Source: an uncultured virus (IMG/VR IMGVR_UViG_3300049982_000338)
Taxonomy: Duplodnaviria; Heunggongvirae; Uroviricota; Caudoviricetes
Direction: 5' to 3' (one strand)
Length of the DNA stretch: 20,000 nt
Virus record (IMG/VR): IMGVR_UViG_3300049982_000338
The notes under the pieces were generated by a model. It ran no database searches and was not told where the DNA came from. It saw nothing but the letters and a program-made list of their open reading frames with translations. Shown in pieces: positions 403-19,444 of this stretch (positions are counted from its first letter, which is position 1; each line of letters starts with the position of its first letter). The translations under genes and the position numbers were made by a program.

Positions 403-1809
403 CTACTTGGTTTCCATCGAGCGGAGCCGGTCCAGGATCTTCGCCAGCTGCGCGGTCAACGTCACCGCCGGCGGCAGCCGCGGCGCATCCGGCTGCGTCA
501 CACCCAGGGTGACCGTGGTGGGGGTGTCGCCCTGCCCCACCGCCACCTGCTTCGACAGCAGCCGCACCTTCGCCGTGGTCGCCTTCGGCCACTCCTCGTA
601 GGCCGGGTGGGTGATCTGCACCTCCAGCTCATCCCCCACCTGGTAGGAGCCGAGGGGGAACTTCCCGGCGGCGGACACCTGCAACCCGTCCAGCTTCCGG
701 CCCGCCGCGCGGGAGGTGAGCAGGGTGCCGGTCACCGCCTCGGACAGCGCCGTCCGCCACCGGGCGGCGTGAATGTCGGCCCAGCTGTCCATCGGCACGT
801 TGTAGACGTCGGGCACCGTGCCGTCCACGGCCAGGTCCCGCAGCTCCTTGCTCATCGACGCCGTCACCGGGATCCGCCGGTCGGCGGCGTCCAGGTCCGG
901 ATAGCCCTCCCCGTGCATCAGCACCGGGAACCCGGCGGCGATCTCATCAGACCCAATGTCGTCCACGGTGGTCACCTGGAACGCCCGCACCTCCGGCTCG
1001 GCGGGCTGCACCACCACCGGTTCCGCCCCGGCCACCGGGGTTCCGGCCGCGTCGGTGGGCTGCACCTTCACCTCGGCGATGGCCGGCTTCACCGACGACC
1101 CCACGTAGGTGTTGTCCATCACCGACCCGTCCTCCTCATCGGACCAGGACAGCAGGCTGCCGGGGTAGGTGAAGGACAGGCCCGACGCGGCGGCGGTCCG
1201 GCCCAGCCGGGGCTCCCCGATCTGCAGGGTGCGGCGCATCGTGCCGTCGGTGTCCCGGTAGCACAGCACGTGGAACTCGATGGGGGTCTGCGTCTCCGTG
1301 AACGAGGAGATCAACTGGGTGACGTTCTTCAGGTCCGCGGCCAGCCACTCCCGGTTGCGGAGCGCCCCGCCGCCGGTCACGTTCTGCACCGTCAGACCAA
1401 TGTCGGCGCCGAACAGGGTCTGCACGTCGGCCACGATCGCGGCGATCATCGTGGCCGCGGTGGCGTTGGTGAACACCCGATCGGCGCGCAGCAGCTGGTG
1501 CGCCAGATACGACTCGAACGAGGCGGCGACCAGCTGGATGCCGGGAAACCCGTGGGCCCGCTTCCGCCCCCACACGATCCCGCCCCACTCCACATGATCG
1601 CCGTACTCCACGTACACGGCGGTACGCCGGGGAGCGGTCGCCGCCCACGGATCCCGGTCCCGCACCTCCTTATCGGTGAGGACCAGGCCCCCGGCCAGCG
1701 ACCCCACCCCGGCCAGCACGTCCTCATACGAGACGCCGATCAACGGGAGGGTCGCCAGCTCGGTGTTCGTGCGCAGGTCGTGGAACACGTACCGCCAACC
1801 GTCGGCCAC
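403..1809 (-). CDS. Minor tail / baseplate hub protein (~468 aa)
   Basis: GTG 1809 just after the upstream stop. WRYVFHDLRT...LPL, WGGIVW.R, G.PRLG, F.YPGSL.SW, YQVGD...V.I and a C-terminal coiled coil (LDRLRSME). Confidence 0.75.
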   Translation of the reverse strand: MADGWRYVFHDLRTNTELATLPLIGVSYEDVLAGVGSLAGGLVLTDKEVRDRDPWAATAPRRTAVYVEYGDHVEWGGIVWGRKRAHGFPGIQLVAASFESYLAHQLLRADRVFTNATAATMIAAIVADVQTLFGADIGLTVQNVTGGGALRNREWLAADLKNVTQLISSFTETQTPIEFHVLCYRDTDGTMRRTLQIGEPRLGRTAAASGLSFTYPGSLLSWSDEEDGSVMDNTYVGSSVKPAIAEVKVQPTDAAGTPVAGAEPVVVQPAEPEVRAFQVTTVDDIGSDEIAAGFPVLMHGEGYPDLDAADRRIPVTASMSKELRDLAVDGTVPDVYNVPMDSWADIHAARWRTALSEAVTGTLLTSRAAGRKLDGLQVSAAGKFPLGSYQVGDELEVQITHPAYEEWPKATTAKVRLLSKQVAVGQGDTPTTVTLGVTQPDAPRLPPAVTLTAQLAKILDRLRSMETK

Positions 1810-1810
1810 G

Positions 1811-3022
1811 TCAGGCCAGGAACTGCTGGTAGGCGATCGGGGAGTCCCAGCGGACAGCGGCATCCCAGGTGGCGGTCATCCCACCGACGGCGGCACCCAC
1901 CTGCACGTAGAACCGGAGGATGGTCGGCCCCTGGTACGGGCCCCGCCCGAACGGCAGCAGCAGCCCGCTGCTCGTCTCATACGGCGGGAAGGTGTCGGTG
2001 TCCCCGGTCGTGGCGTTCGACGCGTAGAAGTCGTTGACGGTGTTGCTGGGGGACAACTGGCTGCCGTTGCTGGAGTTGTCGGCCTGCCATCCGTCGGTGG
2101 GGCTGACCCAGTCGAACGAGCCGTCCGCCTTGTACAGGCGGGCCAGCAGCCGGATCGGCAGGTACTGGGCGGCACCGCCCTGCACCTGGGACTGGGCGGA
2201 GTGCCCGGCGAACCGGAACGCCAGCTTCAGCATGTACGGCAGGCCAATGTCCTCGATCGGCACGTCCGGGCCGACCTGCTGCATCTGTCCGGCGGGCAAC
2301 GCCCCGAGGCGGAGGATCGCCCCCGCGTTGGGTGCGGGCACGGTCTGGTGCCAGCGGCCGTACCCGCCGCCGGCGGCCCGCCACTGCGCCGGGGCGCGGG
2401 AGGTGTCCCACCGCTGCAGGCCCAGCGTGGGATGGTCCCGGTAGGCCCCGTGGTAGGCACCCGGCGCGGTGTCGGTGGTCTGCACCGGCCGGATCCCCCC
2501 GACCGCGACGGTCACCGGCGGCACCACCGTGCCGACCGCCACCGGCCCGGCGGAGCCGTAGACGACGGTCTGCAGCAGCAACGCCCCGGCCGGCACCGCC
2601 GGGGCCACCACCGACCCCTGGGTGGCGGCGTTGGCGCCCATCACCAGGAACACGTCCAGGTCGTTGCTGCTGCCACCGTCGTACAGCTCGTCCCGCACCC
2701 GCGCGCACACGATCCCGGCCGCGTAGGTGGAGGGGCCGGGCAGGGTGGTGGGGGTGAGCAGCTTCTCCGCCCGCAGCGCCGCGATGTAGGCGCCCTGCCC
2801 ACCGCCGCCAGAGGCGATCACGACGGCGAACGGCTGCACCCGCAGGTAGATCCCGGACGCGGTCACCGTGCCCCGGGCGGGGCCGGGGAGCAGCCCGGAG
2901 ATCGGGCGCAGCACATCGGTCGGGGACTGGGTGAGCAGCGCCCCCAGCTCCACCCGGGCGTCCTCGGCGGGCAGCAGCACCGGGGAGTCCTCGGCGCCCT
3001 GCATGAACAACGGAACGGTCAT
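1811..3022 (-). CDS. Minor tail protein (~403 aa)
   Basis: ATG 3022 with AAGGA RBS. ARVRDELYDG...G...PAVPAGALLL..V...VAVGGIRP shoulder-type region, then a beta-rich C-terminus. Confidence 0.7.
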   Translation of the reverse strand: MTVPLFMQGAEDSPVLLPAEDARVELGALLTQSPTDVLRPISGLLPGPARGTVTASGIYLRVQPFAVVIASGGGGQGAYIAALRAEKLLTPTTLPGPSTYAAGIVCARVRDELYDGGSSNDLDVFLVMGANAATQGSVVAPAVPAGALLLQTVVYGSAGPVAVGTVVPPVTVAVGGIRPVQTTDTAPGAYHGAYRDHPTLGLQRWDTSRAPAQWRAAGGGYGRWHQTVPAPNAGAILRLGALPAGQMQQVGPDVPIEDIGLPYMLKLAFRFAGHSAQSQVQGGAAQYLPIRLLARLYKADGSFDWVSPTDGWQADNSSNGSQLSPSNTVNDFYASNATTGDTDTFPPYETSSGLLLPFGRGPYQGPTILRFYVQVGAAVGGMTATWDAAVRWDSPIAYQQFLA

Positions 3023-3047
3023 CGTCGGTTCCTTCTCTCGGGTCGGG

Positions 3048-3935
3048 TCATCGCCAGGCGGGGCGGTAGGTGACGGTGGCCAGACCGACCCCGTTGTAGG
3101 AGTCGGCGAGGAACCGGACGTCATTGTCGCCGGGCTGCACGGCCCAGAACTCGGCGCCGTAGGCGCGGGCGGACAGCTGGGACACCCCATCGACGGTGAC
3201 CGTCTCCGCGGCGCAGTCCACGACCACTTTCTGACCGTCGGCCAGCGGGAACCGGAGCGCGAACGTCTGCCCGGTGGTGCGGTTCAGCAGCCGCGGATTG
3301 GGCGGCGTCGGCCCGGTCAGGGTGAACACGGTGTCCCGGGACGGGGCGCGGCCGGGGTTGTAGTCCGGCTCCAGCCCGGCCGCGCCACCGAAGTTCCACG
3401 GCGAGCGGGCGGGGAAGGTGAGCCCACCGAACACCGGCGCCACCAGCCGGCGGGTGATCGTCCGGATCCCGGCCAGCCCGGCGGCGTACTTGTACGGATC
3501 CGCCGCCCCCAACACCACGGAGAAGGTGCGGGCCCGGGTACCGCGGTGCGGGTCCACGATGCACGGCCCGGCCTGCCGCACCGCCATCTGCTTGGGCTGC
3601 GTGCCGTCCTCACGCCACAGCAGCACGTCCCGGTCCAGGACCTCCACGGCGTCCCGGAACCGGTCCTCCGCGTCGTCCATGTCCGCGCCGCACCGCACCG
3701 GCCGGAACCCGCCCGTCATGGTCAGCGTCTTCGACGGGCGGCGGCCGATCCCGAACCAGCCACCATCCCCCGCCCCCTCCTCGATGGGCAGCGACGCGTT
3801 GGTGGTGCGCCACCCGTCCACGTTCTCCACCACCCACTCGATGCCGAACTCGTCGACGCCGTTGAGCTGCAGCACCGGCGCCTCGTAGGCCGGGCCGAGC
3901 CCCCACGTCACACGTCCACCGGGCGCGAACGTCAC
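3048..3935 (-). CDS. Distal tail protein (Dit)-like minor tail protein (295 aa)
   Basis: GTGA overlap with the tape measure gene. A.DPYKY, FTLTGP..NP.L, W.VQPGDN.V and YRPAW motifs of siphovirus Dit proteins. Confidence 0.8.
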   Translation of the reverse strand: MTFAPGGRVTWGLGPAYEAPVLQLNGVDEFGIEWVVENVDGWRTTNASLPIEEGAGDGGWFGIGRRPSKTLTMTGGFRPVRCGADMDDAEDRFRDAVEVLDRDVLLWREDGTQPKQMAVRQAGPCIVDPHRGTRARTFSVVLGAADPYKYAAGLAGIRTITRRLVAPVFGGLTFPARSPWNFGGAAGLEPDYNPGRAPSRDTVFTLTGPTPPNPRLLNRTTGQTFALRFPLADGQKVVVDCAAETVTVDGVSQLSARAYGAEFWAVQPGDNDVRFLADSYNGVGLATVTYRPAWR

Positions 3936-6900
3936 CAGGCCACCTCCCCGATCTGTGCGTTGAGCAGCCCCATCCGCAGGGAGCGGGCCAGGTCCTGCTC
4001 CAAGATGGCGGCGGCCTGACCGGCGGTCGGCACCGTCGGAACCGTCAGCGTCGGGGAGTAGGTGACGTACACGGCGGCGGCCGCTTCGTGCGCCGCGATC
4101 GCGCCCTGAACGTCACCGGCGGCCTCCAGCTGACGGGCCCGGGCGCGGGCGTTGTCGAACGCGAACTGCGCCATGCTCGCCGTCGACTCGGCGTCGGCCC
4201 CCGCCCCATCGGCGGTGGTGGCGGTGTCGGTGGTGGCGGTGGCGGTGGCGGCGGCCTTCGCCGCCAGCGCGGCGGCGGTCAGCCCGGCCCGCTCGAGCAC
4301 CACGAACTTGTCCGCATCCGACCGGGCCAGGGTCACCGTGCCCGGGTCCAGCCCCTGGGCGACGGCCTGCGCCTTCCCGATCGTCTCGGTCATCAACGCC
4401 ACCTCGGCCAGCAGCGCGGACAGCTCGCGGAGGGTGACCAGGACCTTCCAGCGGACGTCGGCGGCCACGGCGCGCGCATCGGTGGCCTCGGTGATCGCCC
4501 CGTCCACCAGCTCCCGGAACGCGCCGAGGGTGGTGGCCACGGCGCCGGTCTGCTCCGCGATGCGGGTCAGCGCCGTGCTCGACGTCATCAGGTAGCCGAT
4601 GACCTGCCCGGCGACCCCGGTGTCCCCGGTCAGGGCGGGCCGCAGGTTGGACTCCAGCACCTGCCACTGCGCGCCGGTGAACACCGGCTCCGGCGCGTTG
4701 GACAGGTTCAGCCCCGCCATCCCGGGCAGCAGCATCCCGCCGCCGTCGTAGACGGCGGCGTGGACGTGGTTGTGGTGGTCCTTGCGGGTCTGCGCGTTGT
4801 ACGTGTGGTCCCGGCCGTTCTTCACGTCCGGGGTGTCGTCATAAGCCCCGTCGTAGATGAGCTCCGCCAGGGTCTTCCCGAACCCGGAGTACAGGAACCG
4901 GGCGATCGAGGCCAGACCGGCGGACCCGTTCCCACCCGGCCCGGACCCGAACCCGAAGTCGATGGCCTTGCCCTTCCCGTGGTAGCCGGGGTCCCCCGCG
5001 CGGAAGGTCGAGTTGATCCGGGCCTGCGGGATCGCGGCGTGCACCACGTCCCACACGGACCGCCACGCACCGGTGAGCCCACCGCCGGCACCAGCGGCGA
5101 CCTTCCCCGCAGCCTGGGCAGCACCGGCGGCGGCTGCCTCGGCGGCGGTGCGGGTCAGGGTGTCCAGGGCGAACCGGGACGCGTAGTTGGTGATCTCGTC
5201 CTCCACCTCCTTCCGCCGGGTCAGGGCGGCGCCCAGGATCAGCCCACCCTCAGCCATGTGCGGCACGTCGGGGTTGACCACGGCCAGGCCCATCCGGCGG
5301 GCGGTCTGGTCCAGGATCGACATGGACCGGGCGGAGGTGTTGATCGGGATATACGCCTCGTCATCCCGCACCCGGTCCCCGATGACCCGCCAGGTGTTGG
5401 GCTTGACGACCTGCGCGATCCCTCCGCGCATCGCCTTCGGCTCGATCCCGCCCTTCGCGTAGGCGTGCACGATGCCGCCGTCATGCTCATAGGCCACCCC
5501 GAGCGCGAGCCCACCGTTGGCGGTGCGGTACTGCTGCTGGAAGCGGCCCGGGGCGACCTCCATCGTGTTCAGGGCGACGGTCAGCGTCCGCCCCTTCAGG
5601 TTGTCGATCGCCTTCTGCAGGTCGGCGGCGGCCTGGGTGGCGTCGGCGGTGTCGGCGGTGATCTGCGTGGTCCGTTCGGCCGGGATCCCGAGGATCTGGT
5701 CGGCGTAGGTGCGGGCCTGCTCCTGGGACATACCCATCTGCGTGGCCGTGTCGATGAACGTCTGCCGCAACTGGGCGTCCTTGGCGACCACCTGATCGGA
5801 GGTGGCGCCCTGCTCGATCATCTTCTGGATCAGGTCGTTACCGGCGTCCCGCATCCCCAGCAGCGCGGCCTGCGCATTACGCCCGGAATCGGTGTGCAGG
5901 TCGAACTTGCCGGTGGCCTGGTCCACCTGCCCGGTCAGCCCCTCCACCGACGCCTTCGCCTGGTCGACCGACGCCCAGTAGTTGGCCTCCGCCGTGTCGG
6001 CGTCGACCGTGGACCCGGTCAGCCCGTCCAGGCTGGCCTTCTCCGCGTCCAGCGCCGTGGTCGCGGCCTGGGTGGCGGTGTCCAGCTCCGCCTGCTTGCC
6101 GCGCATCCCCTCGGCCTTCGTCTTGGCCTCGTCCATCGACGAGGCCAGGCCCAGCCATTCGGCGACGTGCCCGAGCCAGTCCGGCTTCTTCCCGCCGAAC
6201 TGCTTCTGGTATTCGGTGTTGAAGTCCTCCGATTTCAGGGTGCCGTTGGCGATGGCCGTCGCCCACGCGTCGGTCTGCGCGGACGCCTTCTCCATCTGCC
6301 CGCCGACGGCACCGACGAGGGCGCTGGCGCCGGCGATGGCGATACCCCACGGCCCGCCGAACGCGGCCAGGACACCGCTGGCCGCCCCGGACAGTTTCCC
6401 GACCTTCCCCGCCGCGCCCTCCGCGGCGCCACCGATCCCGGCGAGCGCGCCCTGCGCCGCCCCGGTCTGCCCGGACAGCCGGCCGATCGCCCCGGTCACC
6501 CCGTCGATGACCCCGGACACCCCGGTGAGCGTCTTGTAGCCGAGGAACGCGGTCAGCAGCGCCGCCACCACCGGCACCGGCAGCGCCGCGAGGACGTCGG
6601 TCAGCAACGCCAGCGACGGCAGCAGCGCCTGCCCGATCCCCGCACCGGCGACCACCACGTTCCCGATGATCTCGGCGACGTTCCCGATGATCTCCTTCAC
6701 CAGCGGCCAGTTGGTCCGCACGTACTCGGTGAACTGGTGGAACCCGTCCGAGCCACCGAACTGCTGCGACCAGGTGAGGAACTTCCCGGTCAGGTCCTCG
6801 ATGCCGGTGGCCATCTCCGTGCCGAGCGGCGCGAACGCCGTCCAGATCGCCCCCAGGGCTTCGGCGATGTTCTCCCCGGCGTGCCACAGCGCCTCGAACT

Positions 6901-9096: not shown

Positions 9097-9132
9097 GCCC
9101 GGCCCGAAGCCAGCAGCGCAACCCGCAGGATA
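9097..9132 (-). promoter_or_regulatory. Conserved leader motif copy 4 with -10-like TATCCT, upstream of tape measure gene
   Basis: 21-bp identity with 10145-10165. TATCCT on the minus strand at 9132-9127. Confidence 0.75.
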
Positions 9133-9156: not shown

Positions 9157-9756
9157 TCAGGCGCGCACGACCTGCCCCCCGTCGGGCTGCATCCCGGCCA
9201 GCTGCAACCAGCCGGACGCCTCATCCGCCCACGGCGCGTCGTCCTCACCCCCGGCGGAGCTGGCCTCGGTGATGGTGGCGGGGGCGGCCAGCGATGCGTC
9301 GACCCGGGCCCGTTCCTCCGCGCTCCGCCCGTCGACCATCCGCGTGTACAGCCAGTTGCACAGCCGCTCCAGCGGCCACTCCAACAGGTCTCCCAGCCCC
9401 CGGTCGGCGGCCCGCCCCGACCACAGCTCCCAGTCCCCCACCAGCACCCCGACCAGCTGGGTGGCCTGCCACCACGGCCGACCCGCGACCCGGCCGAGGA
9501 CCCCGCGCCCCATCTCGGCCAGCAGCTCCGGGGTCACCCCACTGTCGGGGTCCATCGCGTCGTCCCACAGCTCCGCGGCCACCGCCTCGGGGAGGACGTC
9601 CAGCAGCAGGTCCGCCGGCTCGTCGGACAACACCCCCAGCACCCACACCCGCGCCGGCTGGTCGGGCACCTCGTACTCCACCCCGTCCAGGGTGAACGTC
9701 ACCGGCCCGGGGGTGTGCCGGGCCCGCCAGGCGGCGAAGTCGACCCCGCCGGTCAC
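9157..9756 (-). CDS. Tail assembly chaperone 2-like protein (199 aa)
   Basis: GTGA overlap with chaperone 1, immediately before the tape measure gene. GRPWWQATQL...WPLERLCNWLY helical region. Confidence 0.6.
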   Translation of the reverse strand: MTGGVDFAAWRARHTPGPVTFTLDGVEYEVPDQPARVWVLGVLSDEPADLLLDVLPEAVAAELWDDAMDPDSGVTPELLAEMGRGVLGRVAGRPWWQATQLVGVLVGDWELWSGRAADRGLGDLLEWPLERLCNWLYTRMVDGRSAEERARVDASLAAPATITEASSAGGEDDAPWADEASGWLQLAGMQPDGGQVVRA

Positions 9757-10112: not shown

Positions 10113-10144
10113 GGGCAGGCTCCACGAGGGGGGTGCGAAGGGGA

Positions 10145-10177: not shown

Positions 10178-10252
10178 GCCTGCCACCCGCCCGGGTGCGG
10201 TGCACGTTGGGGGCGCGCGTCGCCCCGTCCGTACGGAACCGGACAGACCCGG

Positions 10253-10783
10253 TCAGGCGCCGCCGCCGACGACGTCCTGCATCGCCCTGCGGAGGAAGGG
10301 GCGGCCGGCGCGGGCGCCCACGGTGCGGGTGTGCGCGGGCACCGTGTGGGTGAGCTGGGTGCGGGCCGCCACCCGGTGCTTCTTCACGGTGTGCGCGGCC
10401 ACCGTGTACGCCTTCCGGCCGCCCTTGGCGGGCACCGTGTAGCCGAGCTGGGTGCGGGCGGCCACCGTGTGCGCCCGGATCTTCCGCGACCGGACGGTGT
10501 GCTCGGCGACCGTCTCCGTGCCTGCCTTCCGGCCTTCGTGCACGACCAGCGCGTACTCGACGGGGGTGCCGACGGTGCCGCGGACCACCAGCCCGACGGG
10601 GGCGTCCAGGGCGGTGACGATCGACGCCCGCAGGTTCCCGGTGTCGACCGGGCAGTACAGGACGGCCCGGTTGCGGATCTCCCGGGTCACCCGCAGCACG
10701 TAGCGGGTGACCAGCCCGCCGGGTCCGGCGAGCTTGGCCTCCAGCTCCGCGCGGGCCAGTTCGACCCGCGCCGTGGCGGGCAC
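10253..10783 (-). CDS. HK97 gp10-like tail completion protein with a repetitive His/Thr/Val insertion (176 aa)
   Basis: CPVDTGNLRASI, VGTPVEYALVVHEG and terminal RPFLRRAM are hallmark motifs. Confidence 0.8.
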   Translation of the reverse strand: MPATARVELARAELEAKLAGPGGLVTRYVLRVTREIRNRAVLYCPVDTGNLRASIVTALDAPVGLVVRGTVGTPVEYALVVHEGRKAGTETVAEHTVRSRKIRAHTVAARTQLGYTVPAKGGRKAYTVAAHTVKKHRVAARTQLTHTVPAHTRTVGARAGRPFLRRAMQDVVGGGA

Positions 10784-10786
10784 CGG

Positions 10787-11167
10787 TCAGCCCTCCCCGG
10801 CGTCGCCGCCGTGGTCGCCGTCGTCGCCGTCGGCGTCGGTGGGACTGTCCGGATCCGTACGGTCCGCCGCCCCGGCCGGTGGGGTGGGATCCCCGGCGGT
10901 CACGGTGGCCGGATGCTCGGAGTGCAGGTGCCGGGTCAGGCGGGACCGCTTGGCGCGGACCAGCCCGTGGGTGGGCAGCCCGTGCGCGCGGAGCGCCTCA
11001 TCCAGCTCCTCCCCCCGCAGCTCGGTCCCCGCGTGCACCTCCTCCAGCACGGTCAGCCGGCCGTCGGCGATCGCCGCCTCCACCAGCCGGGTGCGGGCCA
11101 GGGTGATCTCCTCACCCCACGCCAGCCCCAGCATCGGGGTCTCGGTACGCACACGAACATCGGACAC
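10787..11167 (-). CDS. Hypothetical protein with SAP/HeH-like motif and acidic tail (126 aa)
   Basis: GGAGG RBS. LRGEELDEALRAHGLPTHGLVRAKRSRL resembles the SAP pattern. Confidence 0.65.
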   Translation of the reverse strand: MSDVRVRTETPMLGLAWGEEITLARTRLVEAAIADGRLTVLEEVHAGTELRGEELDEALRAHGLPTHGLVRAKRSRLTRHLHSEHPATVTAGDPTPPAGAADRTDPDSPTDADGDDGDHGGDAGEG

Positions 11168-11196
11168 AACAGCCTCCAGGCGACGGGCAGGAACGG

Positions 11197-11754
11197 TCAG
11201 GGGACGTGGACGGTGGCGGTGGTGGCGCCGCCGACGACCCCACCGTCGGGGCCGAACGGCACGAACGCGCCGAGGACCATGCCGACGTCCAGGGCGTCGG
11301 CGTAGGTGTAGAGCAGCGCGTCCCGGACGATCGCCGCGTCCAGCACCGCCCGGTCCGCGGCGGCGGTCTCCTCCTCCATCGTGGGGAGCAGCAGCTCGGT
11401 GCCGGCTTCCCGCACCACCGGCGCCGGGCGGACCACCCCGACCTCCACCACCACCGCCCAGGACAGATCCCGGTCACCGACGGACGTGGCGTCCTGGGCG
11501 GGGAACTGCGCGGTGGGGTACAGGTTGACCAGCCGCACCCACAGCTGCCCGCAGCAGCCGGACGCCTCATCCAGCCCGCGGTCGACCACCGCCGCCGCGC
11601 CGGACAGGACCCCCGCCGCGCACGGCGCCACCACACTCGGATCGGCGGCGGCGAGCTCGTCGTACCGGTCCAGCACCGCCCCCAGCACGGCGGCCAGGAC
11701 GGGGGCGGCCACCGGGTCCAGCACCTGCCCGCCGACCACACAGATACGGGTCAC
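11197..11754 (-). CDS. Probable tail terminator / tail completion protein (~185 aa)
   Basis: GTG 11754 (GTGA overlap). CGQLWVRLV..YP, VEVGVVR and PFGPDGGVVG motifs; position in the neck region. Confidence 0.6.
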   Translation of the reverse strand: MTRICVVGGQVLDPVAAPVLAAVLGAVLDRYDELAAADPSVVAPCAAGVLSGAAAVVDRGLDEASGCCGQLWVRLVNLYPTAQFPAQDATSVGDRDLSWAVVVEVGVVRPAPVVREAGTELLLPTMEEETAAADRAVLDAAIVRDALLYTYADALDVGMVLGAFVPFGPDGGVVGGATTATVHVP

Positions 11755-12500
11755 GGGCCGACCGCCAGCACCCGATGCCGCGTCGTGCCCGCACCCCACA
11801 CGCTGGCGGCCCGGTCCAGGCCGTCCGGGTTCACCGACCGCAGCCACGCATCCACCACCGCGATGCCGGTCAGCCCGGCGTCGGCCAGCTCCGTCGGGTC
11901 GGCGATGGACACCGAGATACCTTGGCGGGCGACGTCCCTCGTGCGGGCCGGCAACCGGCAGCCGGGGTCGGCGGTCATGCCCAGCGCCAACTCCAGGGCG
12001 TACCGGCCGGCGGCCAGGTTCGCGTCGTCGGACGCTTCCCGGCCGCGGGTGTAGCGCACCACCCAGCGGGGGGCGTACACGTCCTGGGCGACCGGCCACC
12101 CGCCGCCGTCGGTGCGGACCAGCGTCCCGTCCGGATCACACGCCCACGCATCCCCGGGCAGGGCGGCGCCGTCGAGGAGGACCTCCGCCACGGCGGTGAC
12201 CGGGCCGGGCAACCGGAACGCCCGCACCCATCCGCCGCAGCCCGCACCATTGTCGGCGGAACGGGTAGCGGCGTGCAGCGCGACCGCCCGCGGCGGCACG
12301 TCGTAGAAGGTGCGGCGCGGCGCCGGGACGTACGGGGCGAGGGTGACCTGCACGGTGCCGAACTGCCGCCCCGACAACGCCCACAGGGTCCGCACCGCCC
12401 CGGACAGGGCCGCCTCCCGCACCTCCGCGGGCAGGGCAGCCCACCGGTCCCCGAGCACCGAAGTGCTCGGGGACCAGCCGGCCGGCAGCGGGACGGTCAT
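11751..12500 (-). CDS. Head-to-tail adaptor (~249 aa)
   Basis: From ATG 12500: LWALSGRQFG, LPGPVTAVAEV.LDG, LVRTDGGGWP..QD, YTRG, CRLP.R...ARQGIS, GLTGI..VDAWL..VNP. Synteny after the tail tube gene. Confidence 0.75.
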   Translation of the reverse strand: MTVPLPAGWSPSTSVLGDRWAALPAEVREAALSGAVRTLWALSGRQFGTVQVTLAPYVPAPRRTFYDVPPRAVALHAATRSADNGAGCGGWVRAFRLPGPVTAVAEVLLDGAALPGDAWACDPDGTLVRTDGGGWPVAQDVYAPRWVVRYTRGREASDDANLAAGRYALELALGMTADPGCRLPARTRDVARQGISVSIADPTELADAGLTGIAVVDAWLRSVNPDGLDRAASVWGAGTTRHRVLAVGP

Positions 12501-12502
12501 GC

Positions 12503-13207
12503 TCAGGCGGCGGCGAGGGCCACGAGGCCCTCGGTGACCTCCGGCGGCGCGACCGAGGTGATCTGCAGGTGGAAGTGGGTCTTGGGGCCGACCTCGGTCA
12601 GCAGCGGACCCGGCACCGTCGGGGCGCCACCGTTCGCACCGGCCACGGTGTGCACCACGTCGTAGGGACCGGCGCCCCACTGCGAGTTCTCCCGCGTCGT
12701 GGACGAGATCGAGAACGACGCGGCGCCGTCCTCGATGGTGAAGTCCCCGATCTTCCCGCCCCGCAGGAACGGCAGCAGCGTGTACCCAAAGTTCGCCAGG
12801 CCGGCGCACTCCTGCCCACCGATCCCGGTCCACACCTCCAGCGCCCAACCGCCCAGCACCGGGATACCGCCGTCCATGCGGAACCCGACACCGCGGGCGG
12901 CGGCGTCCACGATCGTCTGGTTCCCGGTGATCAGGGAGACGAGGTCGGGGTCGACGCGGGTGAACGCGATCTCCGCGGACATGGCGGTCAGCCGCGAGTC
13001 GGCCGGCTCGTTGATGTCGATGTCACCGTCGGCGTCCTTGATGGTGACGGTCTCCCCGTCCTCGTACTGCGGGGACAGACCGACCGACACGAACCCCTTC
13101 GACACGCGGGTGGTGGCGGGGCCGACGACGGGGGCACCGCACTCGTCGAGCCGGGTGATCCGCATGCGCTTGCCGCGGATCGGGGCGAAGGTGAGGCCAG
13201 CAGCCAT
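12503..13207 (-). CDS. Major tail (tube) protein (234 aa)
   Basis: FAPIRGKRMRITRLDECG, GFVSV, ALEVW, YTLLPFL, GDFTIE and WGAGPYDV motifs typical of cluster B-like siphophage tail tubes. GGAG RBS. Confidence 0.85.
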   Translation of the reverse strand: MAAGLTFAPIRGKRMRITRLDECGAPVVGPATTRVSKGFVSVGLSPQYEDGETVTIKDADGDIDINEPADSRLTAMSAEIAFTRVDPDLVSLITGNQTIVDAAARGVGFRMDGGIPVLGGWALEVWTGIGGQECAGLANFGYTLLPFLRGGKIGDFTIEDGAASFSISSTTRENSQWGAGPYDVVHTVAGANGGAPTVPGPLLTEVGPKTHFHLQITSVAPPEVTEGLVALAAA

Positions 13208-13234
13208 GAGGTTCTCTCCAGGTGCTCAGGGAAT

Positions 13235-13277
13235 GAGCGCCCGGCCCTCGGCCAGCGGCGGTACAGGCCGCAGCGTA
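13235..13277 (-). promoter_or_regulatory. Conserved leader motif copy 2 with -10-like TACGCT, upstream of major tail gene
   Basis: 26-bp identity with 17863-17888. TACGCT on the minus strand at 13277-13272. Confidence 0.75.
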
Positions 13278-13311
13278 GTGCAGCCCCCGCCCGGTTGGTG
13301 GGGTGGCGCGC

Positions 13312-13674
13312 TCAGTTGTGCCGCGGCCTGGTCCCAGGGAACAGGCCGCAGTACCAGGGCTGGTCCACGGCGTAGGCGGGCAGCCACCCGCCGGGGGGTT
13401 CCATCAACGCGACCCCCGGATAGCAGTTGTTCCGCACCAGCTCGTGGCCGTAGACCGCGGCGTAGGCGACGGTGGGGCTCCACACCAGCATCCCGGCGGC
13501 GATCACCGCCACGATCCACCGTTGCCGGCGGCGGGTGTCCTCGGCGGTGGCGTGCGCGGCGTCGGCCCGCTTGTCGGTCAGGTCGGCGATCGTCGTCCGC
13601 TCGTGCAGCAGCCCGTCGAGGCGCTCGACCCGTTCGTGCAGGTCCCGCACGCCGGCGTCGAACTCCTGCATCAC
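13312..13674 (-). CDS. Coiled-coil plus single-TM membrane protein (~120 aa)
   Basis: C-terminal part of track ORF 13312..14133 from GTG 13674: MQEFDAGVRDLHERVERLD...RRRQRWIVAVIAAGMLVW..., with two C-terminal Cys. Confidence 0.7.
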   Translation of the reverse strand: MMQEFDAGVRDLHERVERLDGLLHERTTIADLTDKRADAAHATAEDTRRRQRWIVAVIAAGMLVWSPTVAYAAVYGHELVRNNCYPGVALMEPPGGWLPAYAVDQPWYCGLFPGTRPRHN

Positions 13675-14216
13675 GGTGACCCGTCGGGACCGTCGAGTCG
13701 GGTGACCCGGGCGACGATGCTCCGGCCGTCCACCCCCGGCCCGGGAGGGCCCTCGGTGGAGCCTTCCAGCTCGCCGGGGTACCACCGCTGCTCGAGGAGC
13801 CCGGGGTGGGACTCGCGGATCCGCTTGACCTCCCGCACCGGCACCAGCACCATCCCGCGGGGCACCCTGTTCCCCAGTTGGTAGTCCTGCAACGCGAGCC
13901 GCAGGTCGTTGACCTGCCGTTCCAGGGACTTGTTCTCCACCTTCAGCTCGCGGATGTCCGCGGTGTGGGATGCCTTCAGGTCGGCGATCGCCTTCTCGTA
14001 GCCGTCGACCCGGTTCTTCGTCTCGGTCAGCAGCACCTTCAGCACGTCCAGGTTGCCCTGGGCTTCGACGACGGTGACCTGTTTCCGGTCGGCGGCGGCG
14101 GCGTCGGCCCGGTCCCCGCGGCGGGTCGCCCATTTGCCGATGATGTCTTTCACACCGAACGCGGCCAGGAAGGTGCCGAGCGCGGCGAGGAACGCGATCA
14201 CGGTGTCCCCGTTCAC
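13671..14216 (-). CDS. N-terminal TM plus coiled-coil protein (181 aa), lysis-cassette-like
   Basis: TVIAFLAALGTFLAAFG anchor, then heptad region (IRELKVENKSLERQVNDLRLAL). Coupled by GTGA overlaps on both sides. Confidence 0.75.
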   Translation of the reverse strand: MNGDTVIAFLAALGTFLAAFGVKDIIGKWATRRGDRADAAAADRKQVTVVEAQGNLDVLKVLLTETKNRVDGYEKAIADLKASHTADIRELKVENKSLERQVNDLRLALQDYQLGNRVPRGMVLVPVREVKRIRESHPGLLEQRWYPGELEGSTEGPPGPGVDGRSIVARVTRLDGPDGSP

Positions 14217-14653
14217 GCCGGGCCCTCCGAGTAGCTGCGGCGGAGCTGGTCCCGCCAGGCAGACAGGTGCGCGTAGGCGTAGCCGTGCATCGCCGCGACC
14301 AGGGCGTAGACGAGGGTGCCGAGCTGGGACACGTTGGTGATGGTCAGGTCCACCGCGAACAGCACCCAGGTGAGCAGCGCCAGCAGGTTCGCCACGTCGG
14401 TGGCCCGCAGCAGCCGGTCGGTGTAGAGGGAGGCGGTCATCACCCCGCCGAACAGCAGCAGCCCGATCCCGAGCGGTATGTCACCGAAGAAGTGCCGCTC
14501 GATCAGGGCGTAGGCGCTGCCGTCGGTGAGGATCTCGTCGGGGCACAGCAGCCGCACCCCGACCGCGACGTCGAACAGGGCGGCCAGGACCCGGGCGGAG
14601 GTGACCCGCGGATAGCGGTGGTCGGGGTCGGCGGTCGGGAACAGGCGGGCCAT
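14213..14653 (-). CDS. Four-TM membrane protein, holin-like candidate (146 aa)
   Basis: About four hydrophobic segments, GGAG RBS, GTGA overlap with the next gene. Confidence 0.65.
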   Translation of the reverse strand: MARLFPTADPDHRYPRVTSARVLAALFDVAVGVRLLCPDEILTDGSAYALIERHFFGDIPLGIGLLLFGGVMTASLYTDRLLRATDVANLLALLTWVLFAVDLTITNVSQLGTLVYALVAAMHGYAYAHLSAWRDQLRRSYSEGPA

Positions 14654-14727: not shown

Positions 14728-15168
14728 TCAGGCGGTGCGGCGGGCCGCGCGGCGCGCGGCCGGCTTCTCACCCTCGGCGTCACCCTCGGCGGCGCCGTCC
14801 ACCTCATCGGTGGTGGGGTTCTCCGCCGCGGCCGGCGTCTCGCCGCCGGGCCGGTCGGTGAGGTGCTGACGGCCGCCGTCGACCTTCGCCGGCAGCGACT
14901 CCGGCGCCGACCCGGACAGAATGTCCGCGGCCTGCACATCGGTGGGCAGCGCCGTGTTGCCCAGCGCGGAACCGGAACGGGCCTCGGCGTCCACGACCTC
15001 GTTCGAGCCGGGGGTGTAGCCGGCGGCCTCCGCGACCGAGGCGGGGACACGGAACCCGTCGGCGACGGTCCGCACCACCTCAGGCTGGTCACCGGCGGCG
15101 GCCAGCAGCTTGCGGGCCACCTCCGGCTGGTCGGCGGACAGGGCGTAGACGTCAACGAACTCAGGCAC
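14728..15168 (-). CDS. Hypothetical virion-associated protein (146 aa); small folded N-domain plus acidic disordered tail
   Basis: AAGGAG RBS before GTG. ARKLLAAAGDQPEVVRTVADGFRVP N-domain and basic C-terminus AARRAARRTA. Confidence 0.7.
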   Translation of the reverse strand: MPEFVDVYALSADQPEVARKLLAAAGDQPEVVRTVADGFRVPASVAEAAGYTPGSNEVVDAEARSGSALGNTALPTDVQAADILSGSAPESLPAKVDGGRQHLTDRPGGETPAAAENPTTDEVDGAAEGDAEGEKPAARRAARRTA

Positions 15169-15185: not shown

Positions 15186-16019
15186 TCAGGCGGTCAGATC
15201 AACAGGAACAGCGACGAGCCCGCAGGAGTGCCCGACGGACACGATGCGGGCCGCCTGGACCGTGGCGACGTTCGTCTCCCGGTCCAGGGCATCAGGGAGG
15301 TTGTGCGGCAGGTCGATGACCGGGCCGCGGGCGACCTGCACCGGCCCGGTGGCGTACAGCCACGTCACCGCATCAGTGCGGGGCTCACCGGCCGGCCCGG
15401 TGCCGGGGTAGCCGGTGCCGAACACCACCCGGGTGCCCAGCTCGGTACGCATCACCCCACGGGACTCGGCCACCAGCCCCTTCAGGGCGGGGAACGCGAC
15501 GCGGGGGGCGTGGATCACCCCGACCGCACCGGACATTCCCCCGATCGCCTCCTCCAGCCGCCCGAACGCCAGCGCCGCCTTCAGCGGGGTGCCGGACAGG
15601 ATGGTCACCTCGTCACCGGCGGCGAGGTGCGGGGCGGCCACGTCATCGGGCCAGCCGACACCGGTCCAGTAGGCGCGCTCGACCGCGGTCTGCTCCGCCA
15701 GCCGCAGCCGGGTGCGGGCGATCTCCCGGAGCCGCTCCAGGGTGGTGCCGACCGGCTTGCAGCGGACCCGGGACGACACCCCGAACGGGGGCGCCTCGAC
15801 CTGCGGCAGACCACCCTCCGGGACGTCGAGGGGGAACACGTCGTCGGGCTGCGGGCAGCCGACCGGGAACACGTCGGGCAGCCCGCAGATCGTGGGCTCC
15901 CAGGTGATCCCGGACTGCACGTGCGGATCGTCGGGGTCCAGCACCGTCGCAGCGGAGTACAGCCCGTACCCGGCCGCCTCGGGGGCCGGTTCCTTCACGG
16001 GGAACAGCGGGGTGGTCAC
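15186..16019 (-). CDS. Second capsid protein, probable capsid pentamer protein (277 aa)
   Basis: Directly follows the major capsid gene. GLYSAATV, ITWEPTICG, GVIHAP, T.LGT.VVFG.GY and LYATG.V motifs match the gene that follows the capsid in cluster B-like phages. GGAG RBS. Confidence 0.65.
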   Translation of the reverse strand: MTTPLFPVKEPAPEAAGYGLYSAATVLDPDDPHVQSGITWEPTICGLPDVFPVGCPQPDDVFPLDVPEGGLPQVEAPPFGVSSRVRCKPVGTTLERLREIARTRLRLAEQTAVERAYWTGVGWPDDVAAPHLAAGDEVTILSGTPLKAALAFGRLEEAIGGMSGAVGVIHAPRVAFPALKGLVAESRGVMRTELGTRVVFGTGYPGTGPAGEPRTDAVTWLYATGPVQVARGPVIDLPHNLPDALDRETNVATVQAARIVSVGHSCGLVAVPVDLTA

Positions 16020-16041
16020 GGGCGGGGCGCTCCTTCCATGA

Positions 16042-16078
16042 CCGAGGCCGGGGAGCCGGTCAGGCTCCCCGGCCTCGG
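16042..16078. terminator. Perfect 16-bp hairpin between the two capsid genes (terminator/attenuator or mRNA stabiliser)
   Basis: ccgaggccggggagcc (16042-16057), loop ggtca, ggctccccggcctcgg (16063-16078). Confidence 0.75.
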
Positions 16079-16096
16079 GTCAGGCGCTACGAGGGG

Positions 16097-17833
16097 TCAG
16101 GAGGCGGCGACGGCGACCGCGCCACCGGCGTTCGTGTAGCCGTTCGCGGCGATCGGCACCGTGTACACCCGGGAGTCGTGACCGGTCTTGGCGACCAGCA
16201 GGCTCTCCTCGGTGAACAGCCCGGTGAACTCGTTCTCCACCAGACCAGCGGAGTCGTAGATCGTGTCCAGGCTGATGACGTCCCCGAGACCCCGAACGAA
16301 CGTGCCCGCCGGGTAGACCAGGAACGACACCGTGGCGGGCCAACGCGCGGCGGCCGTGGCCTGACCGATCGCCGAGTCCTGCCAGTCGTAGACGAACTGG
16401 GGGGCGACGTTGCGGAGGGTGAACCAGCCGCGGATCTGCTGGTCGGTCACCGCGAGCAGGTCGGTGCCGCCCTGCCACGCCAGGTCCGCCCGGATCGCCG
16501 GAACGATCCACGCCGGGAACACGGCCTCCAGCGTCGTACCCCGCGCCATGCGGTGCCGGTACTTGACGTCCTCGACGGCGAGCTCGATGGCGTTCATCAC
16601 CGGCGTGCCGGCGCCGCCACCCGGGTTCGGGAGCGCGGTCACCGCGGTGGACAGCGCCACCATCCGGGCGATCGACTTGGCGGAAATGCGGTGCGCGTGC
16701 GCCGCCAGCGCGCCACGCACGACGCGGGCGGTCAGCTCCGGGTACGCCCGGTTCTGCAGGATGCCGGCGGTGATGCACAGCCCCTCGACCCCGGCCCGCT
16801 CCTCCGTGAAGTCCGGGCAGGGCACCCGGTAGCAGGGCTTCGTCTGCCCCGCGATGGCCTGAGCCTCCGTCTGCGAGAACCCGGTGCCGTCGAAGATGGA
16901 CCGGAAGTCGGGGCCCGGGGTGAACCGAATCCCACCCCTGGCGACGTTGATCTCCGGCAGGTCGACCAGCGCGTCAGCGGCCTCGTACTCCGCCAGGTCG
17001 TACAGCGTCTCCGACGGGGAGCACCAGCCGCCGGCGGCGATCAGGTTGCCGCCGGGCAGCCGGGACTGGTCGATGGCGTAGTCGATGACCTGCGAGTCGG
17101 TGACGGCCTTGGCGACCAGGCCGGGCTCGAAGTCCTTCCGCAGCAGCGCGATGCCGTGCTTCATGCGGGTACGGCCACCGGGCAGCGGCGCCGACGGGTA
17201 CTCCGACGCACGCCGGGACACGGCCTCGGCGACGTCCATGAACGACCCGAACGGGGTACCGGCCTGGTGGCCGGGGGCCTCCGGGGCGGCGATCAGGGTG
17301 ACCGGGCGACGCTCGGGGGCGGCCGGCTTCGGGGACCGCGGCGCCAGGTCAGCGACCCGGGCGCGGGTGCGGGCACCACCAGCCGGCTTCACGGCGGCGG
17401 CGGTGACGGCCTGCGGCTGGTCGATCTCCGACGCGTCGTCGGGAACCGTGACGTCATCGGCCTCGGTGCCGTCCGCGTCCGCGTCGACCGTCTCGTCGGC
17501 GGGGGCGGGGGCCAGGGCGTCGCCGAGGCCGGCGAGCTTGTCGCGGCGGGCGGTAGCGGCCTCCGCGCGGGTGTCCTGCTCGACCCGGACGGTGGTGACG
17601 ATCTCGGCGAGGCGCTCGGCCTCGGCCACGTCGTCGTCGGTCAGGAAGTCCAGGCCGCGGATGGCCTCGAACGCGGCGACGGCCTGCGCCTCGAGGTCGG
17701 CCAGGCCGGCGTCGTCCAGACCGGTCGCACCGTCGGCGGGCAGGGCGATCGGGGTGTCACTGTTGTCGGCGTACACCGTGAAGCGGGCGCCGGTCAGGTC
17801 ACGCTTGATGCGCGGGAGGGTGGACAGGTTCAC
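16097..17833 (-). CDS. Major capsid protein (cluster B-like hexamer type) with long N-terminal scaffold-like region (~578 aa)
   Basis: LIAAGGWCSPSETLYD, DLPEINVARGGI, KPCYRVPCPDF, GLCITAGILQNRAYPEL, LDTIYDS...N.FTGLFTEE motifs typical of this actinophage capsid family. GTG 17833 has an AGGAG RBS. Confidence 0.85.
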   Translation of the reverse strand: MNLSTLPRIKRDLTGARFTVYADNSDTPIALPADGATGLDDAGLADLEAQAVAAFEAIRGLDFLTDDDVAEAERLAEIVTTVRVEQDTRAEAATARRDKLAGLGDALAPAPADETVDADADGTEADDVTVPDDASEIDQPQAVTAAAVKPAGGARTRARVADLAPRSPKPAAPERRPVTLIAAPEAPGHQAGTPFGSFMDVAEAVSRRASEYPSAPLPGGRTRMKHGIALLRKDFEPGLVAKAVTDSQVIDYAIDQSRLPGGNLIAAGGWCSPSETLYDLAEYEAADALVDLPEINVARGGIRFTPGPDFRSIFDGTGFSQTEAQAIAGQTKPCYRVPCPDFTEERAGVEGLCITAGILQNRAYPELTARVVRGALAAHAHRISAKSIARMVALSTAVTALPNPGGGAGTPVMNAIELAVEDVKYRHRMARGTTLEAVFPAWIVPAIRADLAWQGGTDLLAVTDQQIRGWFTLRNVAPQFVYDWQDSAIGQATAAARWPATVSFLVYPAGTFVRGLGDVISLDTIYDSAGLVENEFTGLFTEESLLVAKTGHDSRVYTVPIAANGYTNAGGAVAVAAS

Positions 17834-17862
17834 GGGGGAGGCTCCTGGGTGCTCGGAAGTGC

Positions 17863-17907
17863 GAGCGCCCGGCCCTCGGCCAGCGGCGTGTTCCGACTCG
17901 GAGGGTA
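17863..17907 (-). promoter_or_regulatory. Conserved leader motif copy 1 with -10-like TACCCT, upstream of major capsid gene
   Basis: 26 bp at 17863-17888 are identical to 13235-13260. TACCCT on the minus strand at 17907-17902. Confidence 0.75.
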
Positions 17908-17913
17908 TCCGAG

Positions 17914-17965
17914 ACACGTGATGGCCGCCCGTGTGCCATGAACGACACGCGGGCGGCCATCGTGT
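17914..17965. repeat. Inverted repeat between parB and the capsid gene (terminator, operator or parS candidate)
   Basis: Perfect 12-bp arms gatggccgcccg (17920-17931) / cgggcggccatc (17950-17961), extendable with acac/gtgt outside. Confidence 0.6.
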
Positions 17966-17979
17966 AGAGGACCCCCGGA

Positions 17980-18426
17980 TCAGCTCCCCAGCGGCCTTCC
18001 CGTGGGCAGCTCCCCCGCGCCGATCCCGGGCCAGGAACGCCCCCCGTTGTAGGTGGCCTCCCGCCGTTCCACCTCACGGCGCACCGCCCCGGCGACGAAC
18101 TCCGCCCACGACCGTTCACCCTCCGCGACCGCGGTCTGCCGGTAGGCGGCCCGCGCCCGGGCGAGCCCGGCGGGGGTGTCGTAGAACGTCGACTTTTCGC
18201 GCGCCCCCGTCCGCGTGGTGGCCGCCGCCGGGGCGGCAGCAGACGGGACGACCGTGGCCGGTGCGGCGGCCGGCACCGGCCGGGGAGCGCCCACCACGTC
18301 AGCGGCCCGCTGCGACGCCGACGGTCCGGCGCCGAGCACGGGGTCCACGTCCGGGGCCTTCCGCAGCCCGCCCGGCGACAGCGCCCCCAACGCCTCCGGG
18401 TCCGGCACAGCACCCCGCCGCGTCAC
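17980..18426 (-). CDS. parB: Small centromere-binding ParB-like protein with C-terminal ribbon-helix-helix (actinobacterial plasmid ParB_C type)
   Basis: Lies downstream of parA. Disordered Ala/Pro N-terminus, then KSTFY...ARARAAY...SWAEFVAGAVRREVERREATYNGGRSWP...LPTGRP, resembling the pCXC100-type ParB C-terminal domain as recalled. Confidence 0.72.
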   Translation of the reverse strand: MTRRGAVPDPEALGALSPGGLRKAPDVDPVLGAGPSASQRAADVVGAPRPVPAAAPATVVPSAAAPAAATTRTGAREKSTFYDTPAGLARARAAYRQTAVAEGERSWAEFVAGAVRREVERREATYNGGRSWPGIGAGELPTGRPLGS

Positions 18427-18620
18427 TGGAACCCCCGCCAGTGGACCAGCAGATCCCAGCCGCGGGTGGTGAGGTACCCGGCCAGGAACGCAACGTTGAT
18501 GGCCAGCGCCACGGGTGCGCTACCCAACACGATCTGCAGCACGAGCGCAACGGTGACGAACAGGACCAGCATCAGTGACGCAGACAGCCCGGTACGCGGT
18601 GCCAGCCGAGGGCCGGTCAT
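18423..18620 (-). CDS. Small two-TM membrane protein (65 aa)
   Basis: C-terminal part of track ORF 18423..19574 from ATG 18620: MTGPRLAPRTGLSASLMLVLFVTVALVLQIVLGSAPVALAINVAFLAGYLTTRGW. ATGA and GTGA overlaps on both sides. Confidence 0.7.
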   Translation of the reverse strand: MTGPRLAPRTGLSASLMLVLFVTVALVLQIVLGSAPVALAINVAFLAGYLTTRGWDLLVHWRGFQ

Positions 18621-19444
18621 GCCGGCACCCCCGCCAGCACTCGACGGGCCACCGCCTGCAGCGCGGTCCGCACCCCGTCCGCCCGGTGGAACGGCACCGA
18701 CGGGTCCTCGTTCGGGGTCAGCGGCGCCGAGTGCGACGCCGCCCGCCGCACCCCCTCCCGTTCCGGCACATACGGCCAGATCAGGTGCTGCCCGTAGTTC
18801 TCCCGCAGGAACGCCACCCACTCCTCCCGGTCCACCCGACGATCGTTGTGCTTGTTGACCACCACCCCGGCCAGTTCCAGCCCGGGGTTCAGCGCCCGCC
18901 GGACCGTGGCCAGGGTGCGGACGATCTCCCCCAGCCCGTCGATGGACAGCGCGGACGGCTCGGTGACCAGCAGCGCCGCATCTGCTGCCGTCAGGGCGTT
19001 GACGGTGAGCTGCCCCAGCGACGGCGGGCAGTCGATCAACACCACGTCCATGCTGCTGCTGGCCGGTCCGGACAGTGCGGTGCGGAGCCGGAACTCCCGG
19101 CCCGGGTCCTGGTCCTGCTCCCTGTTCGCCAGCTTCCGTTCCGACGGAACCACCCGGATGCCGGTCGACCACAGTCGCCCGGCGGGGACCGCCATGCCGT
19201 AGGCGCAGCCCGGCGCAGCGGTCCCTAGTTCGGCGTCGACGTACAGGGCGTCGGCGAGGGTGAACTGGACGGCGTCGCGGTCGACGCCGAGCACGGCGGT
19301 GGCGTTGGCCTGCGGATCGGCGTCCACCACGAGCACCGACAGCCCTGCGGTGGCCAGCTCGGCGGCGAGGTTGACGGTGACGGTGGTCTTGCCGACGCCG
19401 CCCTTCTGCTGGCAGACGGCGATCACCCGCGCCCGGCCGCTCAC
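18617..19444 (-). CDS. parA: ParA/Soj family partition ATPase (~275 aa)
   Basis: Deviant Walker A QQKGGVGKTT, VLVVDADPQANAT, Walker B DVVLIDCPPSLG, NALTAAD. Start re-assigned to GTG 19444 (GTGA overlap). No N-terminal HTH, so type Ib-like. Confidence 0.93.
   Translation of the reverse strand: MSGRARVIAVCQQKGGVGKTTVTVNLAAELATAGLSVLVVDADPQANATAVLGVDRDAVQFTLADALYVDAELGTAAPGCAYGMAVPAGRLWSTGIRVVPSERKLANREQDQDPGREFRLRTALSGPASSSMDVVLIDCPPSLGQLTVNALTAADAALLVTEPSALSIDGLGEIVRTLATVRRALNPGLELAGVVVNKHNDRRVDREEWVAFLRENYGQHLIWPYVPEREGVRRAASHSAPLTPNEDPSVPFHRADGVRTALQAVARRVLAGVPA

Follow-up and report, generated by a model that had tools for sequence, protein, structure and literature searches.

The DNA analysed here, a stretch of 20,000 nucleotides from the uncultured virus record IMGVR_UViG_3300049982_000338 (referred to below as the window), belongs to a soil actinomycete virus representing a new, uncultured lineage. 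It is in all likelihood the capsid-connector-tail late operon of a temperate siphovirus of about 97 kb, which is maintained as a plasmid (phage-plasmid) in a high-GC actinomycete host, and whose head module is split. In this arrangement the genes for the large terminase subunit (TerL), the portal and MuF/protease would form one block and those for the capsid and the tail another, the two lying 36-46 kb apart on the same strand. The DNA between the blocks would carry plasmid functions, and the partition genes parAB would be the part of it that abuts the capsid gene. The apparent absence of packaging genes from the window would then be an effect of viewing 20 kb of a 97-kb element, not the mark of a portal-less particle. 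We infer that the element exists as a plasmid and that it produces virions.

All credible genes of the window, whose G+C content is 70-76%, are on the minus strand as judged from the third-position GC of the codons (GC3 0.84-0.97). When 25 of its open reading frames (ORFs) were profiled against Pfam and PHROGs, virion structural genes were recognized (capsid, connector genes, major tail protein, tape measure, Dit and minor tail proteins), and no match was found to terminase, portal, MuF, protease, integrase, sheath or endolysin families. A six-frame tblastn search of the window with 16 proteins of relatives, including TerL, portal, MuF/protease and the type IV coupling protein (T4CP), gave a best E value of 0.034 over 25 residues. 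The original prediction, made from the letters of the sequence, had noticed that no ORF of the window resembles TerL, portal, protease/MuF, integrase, sheath or endolysin, and both kinds of search bear this out. The structural genes that are present are under purifying selection: relative to the nearest relative, L019, the ratio of non-synonymous to synonymous substitution rates (dN/dS) was 0.28-0.56 across six of them, values that are rough as GC3 is extreme, with 0.28 for the capsid gene.

The capsid protein of the window (P0001) was found in a large protein collection on one contig of 96,744 bp, thus the window shows only about one fifth of the element. A portal protein (P0123, 509 aa, 84% identical to the portal of G001, the 87.2-kb record that contains L019) and a TerL protein (P0243, 521 aa, with Terminase_6N/6C domains, 79% identical to the TerL of G001) were each on one contig of exactly 96,744 bp. 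The divergence of P0123 and P0243 from G001 matches the 81% of the capsid. Since coincidence is implausible for three proteins of the same lineage, all about 80% identical to their G001 counterparts and all encoded on equal-sized contigs, the genes for TerL and the portal are almost certainly on the window's own contig. MuF/protease would be located there as well, judging solely from its adjacency to the portal gene in the relatives.

The relatives were collected with the capsid sequence and comprised at least 16 loci from genomes, 79 from viral contigs and at least 44 from metagenome contigs, with 139 loci listed. The nearest one among the matches listed was L019, whose capsid is 81-82% identical to that of the window and which shares the parA-parB-capsid-tail order. 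In L020, part of the 94.6-kb record G002 (capsid 58% identical), and in a further relative, L115, a divergently transcribed block adjoins the capsid gene in place of parB. Both G001 and G002 contain intact genes for TerL, portal and MuF/protease on the contig and strand of the capsid gene, 36 and 46 kb upstream of it, respectively. In G001, where all four genes are on the minus strand, TerL is at 76637-77974, the portal at 70930-72788, MuF/protease at 68027-70672 and the capsid at about 30088-31806. In G002, where all are on the plus strand, the corresponding positions are 4901-6205, 10003-11810, 12002-14605 and 60667-62409.

The split order departs from that of most relatives. Among the 95 listed genome and viral-contig loci there were 61 in which 9 kb or more of sequence precedes the capsid gene (duplicates kept), and MuF was found upstream of the capsid in 58 of these, with a median gap of 2.9 kb, in agreement with the earlier claim that packaging genes normally precede the capsid gene. 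The three exceptions were L019, L020 and L062. The last of these was considered as a third split case and dropped, its MuF gene lying about 11 kb upstream of the capsid. Annotated relatives with the canonical gene order include Microbacterium phage FuzzBuster and the plasmids NZ_CP134608.1 and CP108834.1; the TerL of FuzzBuster gave no match in G003 and G004, two canonical relatives of about 50 kb. The head-assembly module of this lineage would tolerate an insert of 36-46 kb.

The two diverged elements also share an unusual form of the portal gene. In both G001 and G002 its coding sequence is divided into two ORFs, the first of 508-530 aa and the second, which begins at a GTGA overlap, of about 110 aa (L101:1100-3051 in G001, L100:1474-3310 in G002). 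In L021 and L022, which are canonical, one ORF of about 603 aa encodes the portal. Because the arrangement is identical in both elements, it looks like a conserved split, not decay.

In the block that separates the two halves of the head module, the genes described next lie at approximately positions 32-47 kb of G001 and 45-60 kb of G002, regions that are partly covered by L019:1-9800, L020:1-9300 and L115:1-9100. The DNA upstream of the L019 capsid gene encodes ParB, ParA, small ORFs, a VirD4-type coupling protein (TraG-D_C, 2.9e-28), an ATPase whose VirB4-like match is weak (8e-10, far below the cut-off) and, next to this ATPase, a protein of the SCO6880 family (7.7e-129). The VirB4-like ATPase, the SCO6880-family protein and two ORFs beside them have counterparts in L020 and L115 that are inverted relative to L019, and L020 and L115 additionally encode an M23 peptidase, a ParA-like ATPase and a DUF6668 protein. 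Inside the intervening block of both G001 and G002 are genes whose products exceed the curated cut-offs for the coupling protein, the SCO6880 family and the PF03432 relaxase. No match to the TrwC-type relaxase (PF08751) was obtained in G001 or G002, and the coupling protein and SCO6880-family genes were not found in the canonical 52-kb phage G003.

The conjugation block is thus known from the two nearest relatives only, and what the window's element contributes is the junction and the leader motif described below; tblastn detected no transfer genes (relaxase, coupling protein, VirB4-like ATPase) in the window. In these nearest relatives the insert holds a relaxase and genes of the type IV secretion system (T4SS) type. 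The lineage might thus be transmitted in virions as well as through single-strand conjugation of the T4SS type, a suggestion that we regard as rather unlikely. Viral plus conjugative transfer in one element would, if true, be an unusual combination: among the titles and abstracts of reports on phage-plasmids with VirB4/VirD4 or relaxase, no such actinomycete element is described.

Several points weigh against reading the window as part of a plasmid-maintained phage with a split head module. The sequence evidence for the window's element is confined to the 20-kb window, and the link of TerL and portal to it rests on the identical size of 96,744 bp and on matching divergence, without sequence continuity. 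L019, L020 and L115 were all obtained from one metagenome, so that few samples stand behind the support given by the relatives, and the portal of G001 and G002 occupies two ORFs as opposed to one in canonical relatives. Finally, G001 and G002 are classed as linear and have no end repeats, which leaves the choice between plasmid state and integration to inference. An integrated prophage fused with, or located beside, an integrative conjugative element (ICE), with parAB as a remnant or serving the excised form, is nevertheless improbable. The lack of terminal repeats in G001 and G002 would fit such a phage-ICE composite, as would the set of relaxase, VirD4-like T4CP, VirB4-like ATPase, SCO6880-family protein and M23 hydrolase in the relatives' block, and tandems of phage and ICE are described in the available part of PMC13651849. 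However, the parAB cassette is intact and common to the window and L019, no integrase was found in the window by Pfam and PHROGs (a search that covered the window, not G001 or G002), and the contigs of 87-97 kb contained no chromosomal genes in the parts examined.

A second alternative, a plasmid-domesticated head-plus-tail particle, that is, a headed tailocin or a helper-dependent satellite without portal, terminase and protease of its own, would account for a 20-kb window lacking these three genes and for a capsid gene that directly follows plasmid partition genes. The window is, however, only 20 of 96.7 kb, and this alternative is very unlikely because both nearest relatives have intact TerL, portal and MuF/protease genes on the capsid's contig, and because portal and TerL proteins of matching divergence are encoded on contigs of exactly 96,744 bp. 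Of the two options left by the original prediction, the phage-plasmid with relocated packaging genes is therefore supported by G001, G002, P0123 and P0243, and the domesticated particle or satellite is not. The prediction had also argued, from the retained head-tail adaptor, that some source provides a portal, which agrees with the finding of portal P0123 on a contig of the same 96,744 bp as that of capsid P0001, and it had named packaging genes elsewhere on the same element, together with particles packaging their own genome, as the sign of an ordinary phage-plasmid with rearranged gene order; the first of these is what the size match indicates for TerL and portal.

The phage-plasmid interpretation draws further on the partition cassette and its junction with the capsid gene. 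The parA gene (18617..19444, minus strand, GTG start at 19444) encodes a Walker-type partition ATPase of 275 aa (Pfam AAA_31 6.8e-41, CbiA 2.5e-26; phrog_164 1.2e-51), which is 55% identical to the ParA of L019 by tblastn. A dN/dS value obtained for parA was discarded, as it came from a faulty alignment with 29% identity. The parB gene (17980..18426, minus strand) encodes a small centromere-binding protein of up to 148 aa with a CB_ParB_C domain (Pfam PF18064, 1.8e-9, 38 bits with a cut-off of 27), 58% identical to the product of L019:9292-9756 and matching it in position. Walker-type ParA followed by a small CB_ParB_C ParB is the composition of a Type Ib-like plasmid partition system, which the cassette fits. 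No clear array of cognate parS repeats was seen between 17800 and 20000, where only short two-copy families and one palindrome (19941-19974) were present.

The distance between the parB stop codon and the capsid start is 146 nt. The capsid start is a GTG at 17833 preceded by an AGGAG ribosome-binding site, and alignment to five relatives agrees with it, so that the gap of about 146 bp between 17980 and 17833 originally reported is borne out. Just 3' of the parB stop there is a strong hairpin (17920..17961, minus strand), an inverted repeat with 16-nt arms that are 94% complementary, and the fold of 17840-17985 has a free energy of -79.1 kcal/mol (z = -4.0). This hairpin aligns with hairpins of L020 and L115, and the one in L019 at this position differs in sequence. 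The hairpin after parB probably acts as a terminator, which would end transcription of the partition genes and keep it apart from the late operon. A terminator scan of 15900-20000 returned one terminator-like site, inside parA, with 0.6 expected, and a sigma-70 promoter scan of the same segment returned 0 promoter-like sites, a result that is uninformative for high-GC phage promoters.

That the split is an assembly chimera of a phage of about 50 kb and a conjugative plasmid co-occurring in soil metagenomes has next to no probability, for even though the evidence consists entirely of metagenome assemblies and canonical relatives of about 50 kb exist (G003 and G004), the same architecture recurs at 58-82% capsid identity, the junction partners differ (parB in the window and L019, a divergent M23 block in L020 and L115), and a separately assembled contig spanning 16751-19404 bridges the window's junction with 0 differences, at an even depth of 12-16 across the window pieces. 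This contig argues against a chimeric junction, yet it does not represent independent data, as it comes from the one public sequencing run with this DNA, which is possibly the source of the window. That DNA run was the only sequencing run found with window DNA, and no RNA run was listed. Many short joints in the run were set aside, because their sides were 20-23 nt long and they were likely cross-matches.

A leader motif shared by the structural genes offers a way in which the two blocks of a split head module might be expressed together. Approximately 100 nt before the capsid start are conserved as DNA in all six aligned elements, whether split or canonical. The conserved stretch is read in different frames in different elements, therefore the capsid leader is non-coding. 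Its core consists of a TACCCTCC box, a spacer, a hairpin, about 20-25 nt, a GGAG-type ribosome-binding site and the start codon, in this order. The stem of the hairpin, CTGGCY-NNN-GGCCGG, is conserved and its loop is variable. In the window the copy before the capsid gene (17867..17907, minus strand) has the box at 17900-17907 and an exact copy of the hairpin, GCTGGCCGAGGGCCGGGC, at 17867-17884. A second exact hairpin copy (13239..13256, minus strand) is located 32 nt before the start of the major tail protein gene, in front of which L019 and L020 carry the same motif. Copies with one mismatch precede the tail assembly chaperone pair (10145-10162) and the tape measure gene (9097-9114), and weaker copies are at 1682-1699 and 354-371, all on the minus strand.

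Counted over the whole window, there were six matches to the motif compared with 0.43 expected, every one on the coding strand. In its strict form the motif was matched 35 times in the 139 listed loci of the relatives (2.2 Mb), always on the strand of the capsid gene and never on the opposite one, and reversed-sequence controls gave 3 matches. All 35 strict matches precede a pattern of ribosome-binding site plus start codon, a pattern that is permissive in high-GC DNA and was applied without a control. What marks the structural genes across this phage family is thus a strand-specific motif at a fixed distance before their starts, made up of the TACCCTCC box and the small hairpin CTGGCY-NNN-GGCCGGGC.

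The motif is not restricted to the capsid-tail block. In G001 and G002 it precedes a gene upstream of the portal and also an internal start within the MuF/protease frame. The latter occurrence, motif plus ribosome-binding site plus ATG inside a long frame, is at L105:2186 in G002 and at L106:3137 on the minus strand in G001, and suggests a separately started downstream product. In the annotation of FuzzBuster, MuF and protease are two genes. As both halves of the head module carry the motif, their genes could be co-expressed without being adjacent. We propose the motif as a candidate late-gene control element; it could be a promoter or activator site, or else act as an RNA element. In the proposed scheme the capsid gene would have its own conserved leader, shared by the major tail, chaperone and tape-measure genes, the separated blocks would be switched on together through this leader, and the products of both blocks would assemble in trans into ordinary DNA-filled virions. 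If this is true, the shared leader would couple the regulation of both head-module halves in spite of the insert between them.

The combination of plasmid and phage genes has precedents. A Streptomyces plasmid-phage, pZL12/phiZL12, was reportedly described by Zhong et al. 2010 (J Bacteriol 192:3747), under a title that mentions 'transfer' as well. No pZL12-like record was present among the seven PLSDB plasmids that match the capsid, a comparison that did not include a check of PLSDB for pZL12 itself. Phage-plasmids are an established class, according to the parts available of PMC7969092 and PMC12282955. Like pZL12/phiZL12 and its relative pSLE1, which are presented in excerpts of PMC4487206 and PMC5431353 as Streptomyces replicons of about 86-90 kb, the element combines a ParA/ParB plasmid with genes for phage particles. 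It also resembles actinomycete plasmids of about 59-103 kb (NZ_CP134608.1, Streptomyces pSITFR-21c; CP108834.1, Micromonospora) in having a phrog_777-type capsid and tail genes, and plasmids of the NZ_CP134608.1 type carry a phrog_776 portal and a phrog_38 TerL. In contrast to the window's element, however, these plasmids retain the canonical order, with portal, MuF (annotated as 'phage minor head protein') and capsid genes all inside about 6 kb, and their capsids are only 33-36% identical to that of the window.

FuzzBuster (MN062720.1) and its kin have a similarly long capsid (about 580-650 aa), and in these actinophages, which include lytic and temperate ones, the order of capsid, connector, tape measure and minor tail genes is similar to that of the window. 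They differ in being 54-58 kb long and in having TerL, small genes and then portal-MuF-protease-capsid in one run. No parAB was annotated in the 30 kb examined of FuzzBuster-type phages. The late operons of phage-plasmid P1 are scattered, and its morphogenesis genes do not form one contiguous block. P1 resembles the element in its size of about 95 kb and in possessing partition genes (PMC12282955, in part), but is an unrelated enterobacterial myovirus without T4SS-type genes.

As for the leader motif, the closest parallel is SAS/ESAS of Cluster K mycobacteriophages, which in the available part of PMC3203893 is described as conserved across related phages and of unknown function. Both are short, strand-specific repeats at a fixed distance before starts with an inverted-repeat component. 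The two are unrelated in sequence. SAS is associated with non-structural genes and overlaps their ribosome-binding site, whereas the motif of the window is associated with structural genes and lies about 20-25 nt upstream of theirs. The SCO6880 family takes its place in the Streptomyces coelicolor cluster SCO6871-6884, which according to an excerpt of PMC2782261 resembles the T4SS-like cmdABCDEF, and the relatives' block is like this cluster in that its SCO6880-family protein is encoded beside a VirB4-like ATPase. The cmdABCDEF and SCO6871-6884 genes are chromosomal, whereas those of the relatives are accompanied by a relaxase and a VirD4-like T4CP in a phage genome.

Database matches of the window set its lineage apart. 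Capsid homologs that are at least 58% identical were all from metagenome-type sources (jgi, lgn, ena), and the best NCBI-sourced match was 43% identical; the lineage thus appears to be known from uncultured sources only. A tblastn search with the capsid gave matches in 874 phage records. A search of PLSDB for near-identical DNA gave a single match, 49 nt of parA (19360-19408) that share 98% identity with the ParA gene in NC_013449.1, an 85.5-kb plasmid of Streptomyces sp. W9, and no near-identical DNA was found in the phage collection. An exact 61-mer taken at the right end of the window had no counterpart in the metagenome collection, and among the capsid matches listed from genome, viral and metagenome contigs there was none of 100% identity. 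No Rfam family was detected in the window at gathering thresholds.

The remaining features of the window are described in the order of transcription, all being on the minus strand. The major capsid protein (16097..17833, 578 aa) matches phrog_777 with 2.7e-163. Its N-terminal region of about 190 residues (17260-17833) varies in sequence, is acidic and rich in alanine, contains a conserved DEDVAEAERLA-like stretch, and may be a built-in scaffold or delta domain removed by a protease; no separate scaffold gene was recognized. The next gene (15186..16019) encodes a conserved head-module protein of 277 aa that belongs to phrog_779, a family of unknown function (6.9e-45), and is 72% identical to its L019 counterpart. 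It is followed by four small ORFs of the head/connector region (14728-15168, 14213-14653, 13671-14216 and 13312-13674), which are supported by GC3 and have syntenic homologs in L019 and L020, but gave only weak matches to PHROGs of unknown function.

The major tail protein (12503..13207, 234 aa; phrog_792, 1.6e-69) is 66-70% identical to those of L019 and L020. Downstream of it are a head-tail adaptor (11751..12500, 249 aa; phrog_783, 1.7e-46) and three connector genes, again syntenic in L019 and L020, which encode a phrog_810 protein (11197-11754; 1.1e-21), a 126-aa connector ORF (10787-11167) and a Neck1/tail-completion protein (10253-10783; phrog_5, 5.6e-10). The two ORFs of a tail assembly chaperone pair (9753-10112 and 9157-9756; Pfam Phage_TAC_16, 9.6e-5, below the cut-off) overlap by a GTGA stop/start at 9753-9756, the second being in the -1 frame relative to the first. 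As no slippery heptamer of the XXXYYYZ type was found in this overlap, we make no claim of a tail-chaperone frameshift.

The tape measure protein (3932-9067, 1711 aa) matches phrog_4197 with 2.9e-29 and seven more PHROG families, six of them tape-measure families. The tail-tip region (403..3935) consists of Dit (3048-3935; Pfam SPP1_Dit, 1e-11), a virion structural protein (1811-3190 or a later start) and a minor tail protein (403-1863), and the PHROG matches in this region are phrog_5577, phrog_33, phrog_3398 (7e-14) and phrog_1885 (1.2e-37).

At the other end of the window, an ORF of unknown function upstream of parA (19599..20000, minus strand, at least 133 aa, GC3 0.86) possibly continues beyond the window end. 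It gave no family match in Pfam or PHROGs and is 38% identical to L019:7730-7969, which is located between the T4CP gene and parA. Near the 5' end of this ORF, at 19941-19974, is the near-perfect palindrome mentioned above, with adjacent 17-nt arms that are 88% complementary, and this could be an operator or a centromere-like site.

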